The position numbers and the translations under genes are program-made. This document shows positions 7,791-63,725 of a stretch of 64,000 bases of DNA, piece by piece. The notes under the pieces are model-generated. The model searched no databases. It saw only the letters and a program-made list of their open reading frames with translations, and was not told where the DNA came from. Source of the DNA: a virus (Duplodnaviria; Heunggongvirae; Uroviricota; Caudoviricetes). Location: positions 32,001 to 96,000 of the IMG/VR virus record IMGVR_UViG_3300009709_000002; one strand, written 5' to 3'. The stretch's first letter is position 1, and each line of letters opens with the position of its first letter.

Positions 7791-9167
7791 TTAGAACTTG
7801 AGTTCTTTCAGGTCCTTGACGTAGAGGTCTTGGGCCGTGGTGTCTTGGTAGTACTTGAGGGTCTTCCCAGTTTCTTCAATGTTGCCTTGAAGCTTTTCGA
7901 TCTGGTCCTTTGTCAGGTTGTAGATGCGAATGTTGAGAAGCTCCTCGATGCGCTTGAATCCTTCCGAGGCGAGCAGCGCTTCCAGCTCAGCCTTCGTCTT
8001 CTTAGCCACCTTCGACGAGTTCTCGATGTAGTAGCGAATGAAGCGGATTTTTTCGTTGAGAACCTCGAGGTCATTCTCCAGGTCCTTCATCATGGCCAAA
8101 CGGCGATCTTCATACTTCGACAGACGGAAACCGATGAAATGATCGCAGAGCTCTTCAGCTGTCCCGAACTTCTTGATCTTGTTGTTCTCTGTCCAAACCG
8201 TGAAGTTTTCCGACTCACGAGCGATCAGCTTGAACTTCCGCATGATGTCGTTGTCTTCGAGCAGACCAAGATCGCGAGGCACGTCGATCGTCCAGTCCCA
8301 GCCGGTGTCGTCGGAATTGTTCGCGTAGTCCTTGATGACGTTGGCGTCCTCGAGCTCGTTCAGGAATTCCTTGTACTCATCTTGGTACAGGCCGATCGGC
8401 AGCTCGGTAATGCGAATCTTCGTGGAGCTGATTCGTTCGAAGACACCCTTGAACGTGACCTGGCCGGTGGCTGCGCGAGATACTTCGCCCTTAAAGCCAT
8501 TGTACCACGGCACCAGCTTGATGTTGTTTTTCTTGCCTTGCAGCTTGTTGAGGATGTAGGTCTTCAGATCATCCGGCTTGTAACACAGGATTTTCGTTGC
8601 GAAGCCTGTTCCCATCCCAGACGAGCCATTGATGAGGACGTTCGGCAGGATCGGCAGGTAGTACTTCGGCTCGATCTCATCACCATCCGAGATAAGATGC
8701 TCGAGGATGATGTCGTCTTCCTTCGGGAAAATCTTGCGGAAGAGAGGAGACAGTGCCGTGAAAATGTAACGATCGGCGCCAGCGGCCGGAGAGAGGCGCG
8801 ATCCGAACTGACCGATCGGCTTCAGATAGTTGATGTTGTTCGACCCGGTGTAGTTTTGTGCGAGGCCTACGATGGTCCCGGACAGTGAACCTTCACCGTG
8901 GTGATAGTCCGAAACTTCTGCAATGTGGTTTGCGAGCTGGCCGACCTTGATGCCGTTATCCGGATCGATCCCACCCTTCTTCAACGTACCGAAAATGACT
9001 TTCCGTTGCGAGGGTTTGAAACCGTCAACGATCGACGGGATGGCACGGTCACAGGCGTAGATCGAATAATCGCGGACGGGACCGGCGAAGAGGTCACGAA
9101 CACGGATACTGGTCTTTGCCTGGATCTTTTCGGGAGTGTTGTTTGCCATTCGTTTAGATGTTGCCAT
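7791..9167 (-). CDS. Type II DNA topoisomerase, gp52/GyrA-like subunit
   Basis: RAIPSIVDGFKPSQRK, YHHGE, GQFGSR, AGADRY (catalytic Tyr). Confidence 0.95.
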   Translation of the reverse strand: MATSKRMANNTPEKIQAKTSIRVRDLFAGPVRDYSIYACDRAIPSIVDGFKPSQRKVIFGTLKKGGIDPDNGIKVGQLANHIAEVSDYHHGEGSLSGTIVGLAQNYTGSNNINYLKPIGQFGSRLSPAAGADRYIFTALSPLFRKIFPKEDDIILEHLISDGDEIEPKYYLPILPNVLINGSSGMGTGFATKILCYKPDDLKTYILNKLQGKKNNIKLVPWYNGFKGEVSRAATGQVTFKGVFERISSTKIRITELPIGLYQDEYKEFLNELEDANVIKDYANNSDDTGWDWTIDVPRDLGLLEDNDIMRKFKLIARESENFTVWTENNKIKKFGTAEELCDHFIGFRLSKYEDRRLAMMKDLENDLEVLNEKIRFIRYYIENSSKVAKKTKAELEALLASEGFKRIEELLNIRIYNLTKDQIEKLQGNIEETGKTLKYYQDTTAQDLYVKDLKELKF

Positions 9168-54728: not shown

Positions 54729-55083
54729 TGGTGGACCTGCGCGGAGTCGAACCGCGGTCTTTGAGTCATTTCCAGATACCGTCTACACTCATAGTTCCGT
54801 TGGTCATTTAGTCGATCAACAAAGCCCAAGCTGGCAAAGCGTGTTGATCCAAGCTCGCTAAATCTTAATTCACGGCCGCAAACGAGTCACATGAATCTAG
54901 TCAGTCAATCGGATGACCCGGCAATAAAGTAGGACTGACACTCTCTACTCGCCGAGCTTACGCTGCTAGAGCGTAAGAGCTGTCGTTAGACGCTGCGGTT
55001 ACTTCTGTTGCTCTGTTTAACGTCAGTTGCATGACGGAGTGCGGATAAACGAATTCTACCCAAATCTACACCATTTCAGGCCC
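54729..55083 (-). ncRNA. ssrA: tmRNA, tag peptide AASNDSSYALAA* (54958-54996)
   Basis: Acceptor stem GGGCCTG/CAGGTCC-ACCA with G3:U; T-arm CGCGG-TTCGACT-CCGCG; 355 nt; tag ends YALAA. Confidence 0.95.
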
Positions 55084-60555: not shown

Positions 60556-60713
60556 TGGGTGGGCACCCCGCGGGATTCGAACCCGGGTCAGCTACAAGCT
60601 ATCGCAGATTCAATCTTGAGGGAGAGTCTAGAATCGCACTCAAAACAACCTGGTCTTTCCTGTATTGCAACGGCTTATCGGCCGCCGGCTTTTCCAATTA
60701 CCATAGGTACCCA
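60556..60713 (-). ncRNA. 158-nt tRNA-like RNA with greatly extended variable arm
   Basis: Acceptor (T)GGGTACC/GGTGCCC(A)-CCCA, D-loop AATTGG, GCGGC-CGATAA-GCCGT arm, T-loop TTCGAAT, 77-nt hairpin insertion. Confidence 0.7.
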
Positions 60714-60718
60714 TTAAA

Positions 60719-61021
60719 TTACTGCTTGTAAGGATAGTTGCAGCCCTTACGCAGCTTAAGACCTCTCGTGACTTTGCTATCCCACCGCGAAAACTTCGAT
60801 CGACGATAGAAATGTCGATGAATCTCAGCCGAGTAGTCACCTTGAGCATAGTGCAGCGCCATCTGAGGCGAGCTATACCACGTCGGTGAGCACATTCGCT
60901 TGATGCGACCATCTAACGATTGTACGAAATACTCGTAAGCTTCACGAGCGCCATAGCTTACCAGGTAGTGGTCAGGCATGACCTGCACTACCAACTTCCC
61001 ATACCGTCTTAGAAGTCTCAT
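60719..61021 (-). CDS. Hypothetical basic protein
   Basis: ATGA coupling. Confidence 0.5.
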   Translation of the reverse strand: MRLLRRYGKLVVQVMPDHYLVSYGAREAYEYFVQSLDGRIKRMCSPTWYSSPQMALHYAQGDYSAEIHRHFYRRSKFSRWDSKVTRGLKLRKGCNYPYKQ

Positions 61022-61516: not shown

Positions 61517-61562
61517 GGTACATCCAGAAAAGATATTATAAACTACCAGTGCGGCTTTGTAA

Positions 61563-61745
61563 CTACTTTTCTTTCAACTTTCGAATGCCGAAAGTGCGAA
61601 TGTCAGCCGGTTTCAGGCGGCCATACTTCTCTAATATGATGAACTTACCAGTGCGTTCGAGGAACTTGTCCTCGATTATCTCACCAGTTCGTAGAACGAT
61701 CCGCACCGTCGTACCTCTTCGGCAGGACGTGTGCGGTTGTCTCAT
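61563..61745 (-). CDS. Small hypothetical protein
   Basis: 60 aa, ATGA coupling. Confidence 0.5.
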   Translation of the reverse strand: MRQPHTSCRRGTTVRIVLRTGEIIEDKFLERTGKFIILEKYGRLKPADIRTFGIRKLKEK

Positions 61746-63537: not shown

Positions 63538-63725
63538 TGGCAGCCCCGGCTTGGAATTGAACCCGCGACCCTCAGATTAGAAATCTGCCGCTCTAACGAA
63601 CGTATGTTGCGCTACCATCTCTGGTCATCAGCCTATGCATAAGCTTCAGAGTTTCAATGCAGTCTTCACACGTTGCGCTGTTTCATCTATGATCACTTGA
63701 CAAAACACCACTGAGCTACGGAGCC
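63538..63725 (-). tRNA. tRNA-Arg(UCU)-like gene with 111-nt structured insertion in the D-loop
   Basis: GGCTCCG-TA-GCTC-AGTGG[63597-63707]TTA-GAGC; TT-TCT-AA loop; TTCAATT; CGGGGCT-GCCA. Confidence 0.8.

Follow-up and report, generated by a model that had tools for sequence, protein, structure and literature searches.

The 64,000-nucleotide (nt) window analysed here (bases 32001-96000 of the 360,227-bp IMG/VR phage genome IMGVR_UViG_3300009709_000002, called G000 below, which has direct terminal repeats) carries at 60556-60713, on the minus strand, a tRNA-shaped RNA gene of 158 nt, counting the U at position -1 and the 3' A-CCCA. The explanation which we prefer, and which we consider probable without being confident of it, is that of a conserved and selected RNA gene, derived from a tRNA of class II, which does not decode and would act in trans by the tip of a giant variable arm. 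Comparison of the homologues described below shows that the acceptor stem, the A73-CC(C)A end, the GG of the D loop and the UUCGAAU of the T loop are retained in the predicted structure, that the anticodon loop is disabled and that the loop at the tip of the arm is conserved. In this phage and its relatives the RNA has a length of 152-160 nt.

The phage genome encodes a T4-type topoisomerase II and other core genes. By its topoisomerase the nearest relatives are an uncultured 345-kb phage (G001, 52% identity) and the Ralstonia phage RsoM2USA (47%), while identity to Xanthomonas jumbo phages such as XacN1 is 43%. ARAGORN finds 50 tRNA genes in the genome (51 with the intron option) and one transfer-messenger RNA (tmRNA), and the surroundings of the 158-nt element consist of tRNA genes and small open reading frames (ORFs). 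The element itself is missed by the tRNA finders, as an earlier reading of the DNA made without database searches (the sequence-only reading) had anticipated. ARAGORN makes no call at 60556-60713 with or without the intron option, and Rfam leaves the element unmatched at the gathering score and at E<=10, even with only 191 nt searched, the sole signal at E=10 being a 15-nt match of the T loop to the tmRNA model (RF00023, 8.5 bits). The tRNA model RF00005 has no match at E<=10, neither in 5.5 kb nor in 191 nt. The sequence of the giant arm occurs once in the phage genome, by which the arm was ruled out as a repeat or mobile element.

Homologues were reached through the proteins of the neighbouring genes, which led to related contigs; a BLAST search at the DNA level of the local region against GenBank phages and a first pattern scan gave none. 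A covariance model (R1) was built from the first three sequences and a second one (R2) from all matches. R1 yields eight matches with 67-191 bits, representing six distinct versions, i.e. the window copy and five others from uncultured relatives; the window copy scores 185 bits with R1 and 180 bits with R2, and ordinary tRNAs reach 20-39 bits with R2. The rod-like arm is conserved and covarying in these versions, so that the homologue search proposed in the sequence-only reading came out in its favour. A member in a cultured phage was recovered with R2, which finds in XacN1 an element of 152 nt (48 bits, E 4.6e-10; AP018399.1 45295-45446, equal to L045:1501-1652), with a second copy at 364090-364241 in the other terminal repeat. 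This element is not annotated and is located inside the tRNA array, between tRNA-Cys and ORF101. It has in common with the clade of the window copy the architecture, the D-loop sequence, the 6-bp T stem, the motif GAUAGCU and the AUUCUAGA of the apical loop, and is probably a homologue, as judged from these sequence features.

Scans with the models gave only matches at the level of ordinary tRNAs in G001, RsoM2USA, Stenotrophomonas phage CM1, the Xanthomonas phages X1, Xoo-sp13 and XbC2 and Erwinia phage Kaldavass, and a BLAST search of the XacN1 element against GenBank phages returned only the element itself. One pattern-scan match (L022) proved to be an ordinary tRNA, and a 144-nt candidate in RsoM2USA, with 10.9 bits in the first model, was lost with the better model and is not a member. 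Two uncultured phages of about 640 kb, scanned jointly with three other records and with stricter filters, gave an empty result which carries no information. At that place (MG752970.1 331859-332002, minus strand, equal to L030:860-1003) RsoM2USA has a strong orphan T arm, GCGGGUUCGACUCCCGC, followed by CCACUCC-A-CCCA, which overlaps the 3' end of an annotated hypothetical coding sequence; no matching 5' acceptor strand was found nearby. The match in XbC2 (OP292654.1 297939-298056, plus strand) has 118 nt and 23.9 bits, i.e. tRNA level, and may be an oversized tRNA-like gene.

Two approaches, RNAalifold on a plain MAFFT alignment of three sequences and pair counts in a model-fitted alignment of the six distinct sequences, agree on a cloverleaf. 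The 5' part of the consensus is composed of an acceptor stem of 7 bp, a linker of 2-3 nt and a D arm with 3 bp in the stem and 10 nt in the loop, directly followed by an 'anticodon' stem of 6 bp. Directly after the anticodon stem comes the variable arm, of 78-83 nt in this consensus, and then a linker of 3 nt, a T arm with 6 bp in the stem and 7 nt in the loop, an A, and CCA or CCCA. The variable arm, with 78 nt in the window copy and 72-83 nt across the homologues, is built of a base helix in which AA is bulged, a conserved internal loop rich in purines (AAAGA opposite GAUAG), a middle helix, a distal helix of 8 bp and an apical loop of 18 nt. In the consensus pairing of the six sequences 96.8% of the cells are standard pairs, compared to 35-46% when the partners are slid by one to three columns, and 19 pairs are changed on both sides, compared to 2-5 in the slid controls; the observed values were not attained in any of 500 shuffles. 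These double changes are found in the acceptor stem (3), the arm base (3), the middle and distal arm (10) and the T stem (3). A K-turn in the internal loop was considered and rejected, being, by eye only, non-canonical with three extra nucleotides on the non-bulged strand.

The arrangement of acceptor and T stem, 7 bp plus 6 bp, is found in all homologues and forms a stack of 13 bp, the extra pairs of which covary; in relatives the T stem reads CCUAGG/CCUAGG or UAGAGG/CCUUUG. The signatures of the elbow and of the end (the GG of the D loop, UUCGAAU, and the discriminator with CCA) are kept in the six clade versions and in XacN1, the 3' end being A-CCA in L033, L035/L036 and XacN1 and A-CCCA otherwise. 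Position 8 is U, or G in three lineages, and the third acceptor pair is G-C or A-U, with no G3-U70. The U at position -1 (60713) is kept in the six clade versions despite their differing upstream flanks, and is a C in XacN1. U is the nucleotide which bacterial ribonuclease P (RNase P) prefers at this position.

All the parts from which the sequence-only reading had assembled its tRNA-like RNA are present on the minus strand, namely the acceptor UGGGUACC...GGUGCCCA with CCCA, the GG-containing D loop, the 6-nt loop CGAUAA, the UUCGAAU T loop and the long hairpin, but some of the helices had to be redrawn. The acceptor strands do pair as proposed, over a different extent: the stem is the 7 bp GGGUACC/GGUGCCC with a discriminator A, and the leading U is position -1. 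At the arm base, proposed as UGCAA/UUGUA, covariation instead gives G46-C123, C47-G122, the AA bulge and then UACAGG/CUUGUA. The helix CAGGUU/AAUCUG holds in four of the six versions, while its two outer pairs are broken in L021 and L033, and the helix GUUUUGAG/CUCAAGAU has strong support from covariation.

Comparison with the flanking genes shows the whole predicted structure to be under purifying selection in several phage lineages, since the RNA is conserved to a higher degree than these genes are at their third codon positions. In L021 the identity of the RNA is 0.75, versus 0.55 and 0.45 for the third codon positions of the two flanking genes; in L032 the corresponding values are 0.56 versus 0.43 and 0.37.

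The least conserved part is the anticodon-like loop, which reads CGAUAA in the window copy, CGGAAAA in L021, CGGAUAA in L033, CAGAAG in L032 and AGUAA in XacN1. As this loop has 5-7 nt, never a U33 and no conserved triplet, the RNA does not decode, which agrees with the non-decoding tRNA mimic of the sequence-only reading. A deletion scan, in which every segment of 30-109 nt was removed and the resulting 5,560 variants were submitted to ARAGORN at the default threshold, gave no variant called as a tRNA; no single deletion thus restores a tRNA, and so the arm is no intron. Also rejected was a mini-tmRNA in which a short frame would encode the tag: open frames of 8-14 codons are present, but their ends differ from one lineage to the next, wobble positions are perfectly conserved, and the G3-U70 pair is absent. 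As to ancestry, the frame is of the class II type, since its D stem has 3 bp and carries a long loop with GG, its variable arm starts where the anticodon stem ends, and A73 is present. Among ordinary tRNAs the highest score with the model, 38 bits, is that of the tRNA-Tyr(GUA) of a relative, and Lys(CUU) tRNAs score 24-33 bits with R1 and 37.7 bits with R2. Derivation from a class II tRNA of the Tyr/Ser/Leu type belongs to the explanation preferred here and shares its degree of probability, no single progenitor being nameable.

The arm tip is a conserved module, as seen in the alignment of the clade, where the 14-nt motif GAUUCUAGACUCUC is invariant while the helix bearing it is fully rewritten, from UUGAG/CUCAA in the window copy to GUGCAC/GUGUAC in L032. 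In XacN1 the distal hairpin of the arm has the stem GACUGC/GUAGUC and the loop AUUCUAGAAC, in which AUUCUAGA is the part in common with this clade. The sequence GAnUCUAGAnUC is palindromic at 10 of 12 positions, and CTAG is under-represented about two-fold in the phage genome. The phage genome has no second copy of the motif and no complement to it beyond chance at up to 2 mismatches, and an intragenomic antisense target of the loop was rejected on these grounds. Pairing of the loop with the ribosome-binding site of the downstream yqeY gene was likewise rejected, GAGAG being present there only in the window copy, and so was UUCUAGA at the arm tip as a 7-nt anticodon-like loop (amber CUA), for which no homologue has the closing pairs. 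Coordinates are collected in Table 1.

Table 1. Coordinates in the window of the tRNA-shaped RNA gene, its parts and the adjacent features.
Feature	Position	Strand	Remarks
Whole RNA gene	60556..60713	-	covariance-model scores; consensus structure with covariation
Acceptor, 5' strand GGGUACC	60706..60712	-	pairs with 60561-60567; compensatory changes in three pairs
D arm, stem GGU/GCC (3 bp) and loop AAUUGGAAAA (10 nt) containing the elbow GG	60687..60702	-	stem invariant or with one-side changes
Anticodon-like arm, 6-bp stem GGCGGC/GCCGUU and 6-nt loop CGAUAA without U33	60669..60686	-	stem near-invariant
Giant variable arm, 78 nt	60591..60668	-	in 13 arm pairs both bases change with pairing preserved (helices 5 and 6)
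Apical-loop motif GAUUCUAGACUCUC, 14 nt	60622..60635	-	invariant in six clade versions; contains the palindrome UCUAGA
T arm, 6-bp stem CCCGGG/CCCG[C]GG and loop UUCGAAU	60568..60587	-	a single C bulged out in this copy; compensatory changes in three pairs
Acceptor, 3' strand GGUGCCC, discriminator A (60560), then CCCA	60556..60567	-	
yqeY, 145 aa	60100..60537	-	start 18 nt past the RNA, ribosome-binding site GAGAGG between; PF09424
Nearest upstream sigma-70-like promoter match, GTTACA-17-TATAAT	61535..61563	-	consensus match only

If the RNA works as we propose, it would be co-transcribed with its neighbours inside an operon. The position of the nearest promoter match, together with the absence of a terminator-like site between this match (61535-61563) and the RNA, suggests transcription of this kind, in which case the RNA must be cut out; no convincing sigma-70 or T4-type promoter was found inside the arm. 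Release would be left to the tRNA-processing enzymes of the host, by a cut of RNase P after U-1, trimming of the 3' end and repair of the CCA. The tRNA frame would confer defined ends, stability and access to proteins which bind the elbow or the acceptor of tRNAs, and the working part would be the arm tip, AUUCUAGA with its palindrome UCUAGA, binding a partner in trans. This partner could be a protein, a second copy of the RNA contacted by loop-loop pairing, or some different RNA, for instance a CUA anticodon.

A number of points weigh against this explanation. The alignment used for the pair counts was fitted to the model and so favours the structure, although RNAalifold, with three sequences in a plain MAFFT alignment, gives the same fold. 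Neither of two predicted stems, that of the D arm and that of the anticodon-like arm, shows covariation. The arm of the XacN1 element is not aligned by the model, and its homology depends on the score of the frame and on motifs read by eye. The family is small, with no further members from pattern scans of viral, metagenome and genome collections. The folding energy is ordinary (z -1.7 for the whole element and z -1.0 for the arm), so that the evidence beyond chance comes from conservation and covariation and not from thermodynamics. Finally, whatever is said here of a discrete RNA, of its ends, of aminoacylation and of a partner is inferred from sequence.

The first of the other explanations, which we regard as unlikely, is a cis-acting leader of yqeY, i.e. 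a tRNA mimic in the 5' untranslated region which would be bound by YqeY or by a tRNA-processing enzyme and would control translation or the 5' end of the message. The operator of thrS, which mimics tRNA-Thr, provides a model for such a leader. The sequence-only reading had a YqeY gene starting less than 20 nt away, and the gene is indeed there, starting 18 nt downstream of the RNA and matching Pfam PF09424 with E 2.3e-9 and 38 bits (cut-off 27). In the six distinct clade versions, found at eight loci, the RNA always ends 15-20 nt before the yqeY start, though the gene upstream varies (a 100-aa ORF, none, or a 108-aa ORF), and for YqeY-like domains in fusions with enzymes a link to tRNA binding has been described (PMC2811023, PMC1865053). 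The adjacency at these eight loci, however, is that of one clade, syntenic by descent, which makes the link to YqeY weaker than the sequence-only reading had implied; the synteny holds within the clade and fails outside it. In XacN1 the RNA precedes an unrelated 89-aa ORF and yqeY is about 197 kb away, and one close relative (L020/L040, YqeY 66% identical) has yqeY with a 79-aa ORF in the slot of the RNA and no copy of the RNA within 18.4 kb. No tRNA-like element is found upstream of yqeY in G001, RsoM2USA or three IMG/VR contigs (L002-L004), and in the clade versions no pairing of the RNA with the ribosome-binding sites is conserved. A leader would also leave the encoded A73-CCA and the conserved arm loop unexplained.

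As regards YqeY itself, the statement that it is known to bind the tRNA elbow went too far. For GatB and GatE, recognition of the D loop by the YqeY-like tail is a proposal; in Deinococcus GlnRS the fused YqeY domain improves tRNA binding, though in cis only, and no function is known for YqeY on its own (PMC2811023, PMC1865053). YqeY is a candidate partner for the tRNA frame, neither shown nor required; its role as a partner does not follow from the data, and we consider such a partnership rather improbable.

A decoy or sponge has a similarly low probability. The mimic would occupy a host tRNA-cleaving defence nuclease, a synthetase or some other tRNA-binding factor while being unusable in translation, which suits a frame with an intact elbow and a disabled anticodon loop and is compatible with an RNA acting in trans, of which it would be one version. 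The frame resembles Tyr and Lys tRNAs. These tRNAs are targets of known anticodon nucleases (PrrC; RloC, PMC2610378), which counts for a decoy. A decoy for an anticodon nuclease, on the other hand, would be expected to mimic the anticodon loop, which is the least conserved one here, and the conserved arm loop has no known tRNA counterpart.

Two further explanations are disfavoured. A decoding tRNA with an intron-like insertion removed after transcription could be thought of, as other tRNA genes of this phage carry insertions and Lak phages have 'enigmatic' tRNA introns (PMC6784885), but it is very unlikely in view of the deletion scan, of an anticodon-like loop that differs between orthologues and has no U33, of the 6-bp T stem and of the tip of the insert being the best conserved part. 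A decaying tRNA pseudogene with a chance hairpin, which would account for every arm being non-canonical and for the weak folding z-scores, can hardly be reconciled with the compensatory changes in four helices, the invariant 14-nt loop, a conservation above that of synonymous sites across lineages with proteins 54-68% identical and the same design in XacN1.

To return to the preferred explanation, of a tRNA-derived RNA acting in trans, a speculative and quite improbable extension is that the arm tip serves as a specifier, which would capture the anticodon of a phage amber-suppressor tRNA(CUA), or that it forms a kissing dimer via UCUAGA, and in this way regulates read-through or the availability of the suppressor. 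AUUCUAGA displays UAG followed by A and also contains CUA, and the specifier loop of a T-box likewise displays a codon followed by a purine. A tRNA(CUA), an amber suppressor with the ARAGORN label 'Pyl', is encoded in this genome outside the window (G000:C1:277432-277506, minus strand), and each terminal repeat of XacN1 contains two CUA suppressor tRNAs (PMC5852040). If the tip is a specifier, YqeY could hold the mimic by its elbow.

To our knowledge oversized tRNA-like RNAs have been known since T4 RNAC in the 1970s, and none has an assigned function. RNAC (species 1 RNA, rnaC, found with RNAD) is encoded at NC_000866 70908-71046, has 139 nt and the T arm CCGGGUUCGAAUCCCGG, and is located in the tRNA cluster; it is a stable RNA, the role of which is unknown (PMC3014915, PMC9697503). 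In common with the RNA described here it is oversized and non-decoding, belongs to a phage tRNA cluster and has acceptor-like ends around long extra hairpins. The predicted fold of RNAC, however, is without a recognisable D or anticodon-like arm and without the UCUAGA loop motif, whereas the present RNA keeps four arms and enlarges only the variable arm. With the family model rnaC scores 15.5 bits, from the T arm and the ends, and no sequence homology is detectable beyond those. We conclude, from this comparison, that RNAC is the same kind of RNA, an analogue but not a demonstrable homologue.

The tRNAs of Lak megaphages, with their 'enigmatic', highly conserved introns (Devoto et al. 2019, PMC6784885), resemble the present RNA in being oversized and tRNA-shaped, in occurring in very large phages, in being unclassifiable by bacterial tRNA finders and in having conserved inserts. 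They are read as decoders with the insertion in or near the anticodon loop, while in the present RNA it is the variable arm that is added, and what is left of the molecule cannot decode. Bacterial class II tRNAs (Tyr, Ser, Leu; RF00005) have in common with it the 3-bp D stem, the long GG loop, the position of the variable arm, A73 and the T loop; their variable arm, however, has about 13-21 nt as compared to 72-83 nt, and the present RNA differs from them by its 6-bp T stem, the non-conserved U8, the 5-7-nt loop without U33 and the lack of a match to RF00005. Both tmRNA and the bacterial Y RNA YrlA combine, as it does, a tRNA-like module of acceptor and T arm with a large non-tRNA module. Unlike tmRNA, the present RNA has no G3-U70, pseudoknots, tag frame or Rfam match. 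In YrlA the ends of the RNA form the Ro-binding stem and not an acceptor stem, a topology opposite to that described here. As far as the allo-tRNA definition taken from PMC5389517 extends, tRNA-Sec and allo-tRNAs have acceptor and T stems of 8/5, 9/4, 8/4 or 9/3 bp and a functional anticodon (UCA for Sec), as opposed to 7/6 and no anticodon in the present RNA; the 13 bp of tRNA-Sec equal the total found here, with a different split.

The features which distinguish this family are the four arms kept, the expansion of the variable arm, the 7/6 stack, the palindromic tip motif and a member in a cultured phage. The annotation of large phages, in which tRNA genes number in the dozens, depends on tRNA finders, and these pass over such RNAs, as illustrated by the XacN1 copy, left without annotation in a published genome. 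The four-arm design, an invariant 14-nt loop as candidate active site and the cultured member mean that the function could be addressed by ordinary genetics and biochemistry. The family also shows a natural tRNA frame which carries and displays a foreign RNA module outside the anticodon arm.

The sequence-only reading had joined the RNA into one family with a neighbouring Arg tRNA gene expanded in the D loop, at 63538-63725 (minus strand). This grouping was dropped, as the two have no motif in common and behave differently in the deletion test. When 63597-63707 are removed from the Arg element, a 77-nt tRNA-Arg(UCU) accepted by ARAGORN results; it is a decoder, split in its D loop by an insert of 111 nt, and of a different kind from the 60556-60713 RNA, which fails this test, so that the two oversized tRNAs are different things. 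At the place syntenic to the Arg element L021 has an ORF 22 nt after tRNA-Ser(UGA) and no counterpart of the element.

Some further observations concern the surroundings of the RNA. The 100-aa ORF directly upstream of it (60719-61021, minus strand) has no homologue except itself in a collection of 5.8 billion proteins, and is readable, though uncalled, in the near-identical contig L019. The slot between a conserved 103-aa ORF and yqeY differs among the relatives. The tmRNA of the phage is encoded at 54729-55083 (minus strand; Rfam 95 bits; tag AASNDSSYALAA), 5.5 kb from the tRNA-shaped element.

Other unusual tRNA-like genes are found in G000 outside the window. A tRNA-Thr-like gene of 125 nt (G000:C1:9724-9848, minus strand) has about 49 extra nt after the anticodon region and is called by ARAGORN only with the intron option, the predicted junctions not being clean. 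ARAGORN passes over about a dozen T arms that have 3' ends like those of tRNAs, several of them in tRNA-like genes of near-normal length (68-90 nt); approximate positions in G000:C1 are 98431-98509, 99018-99097, 101326-103, 334821-906, 8000-8070 and 353163-230. Two of the uncalled genes are paralogues, with Leu-type anticodon loops (UAA and CAA) and the unusual D region GGCUAAUGYAAAUYGGYACAGC.

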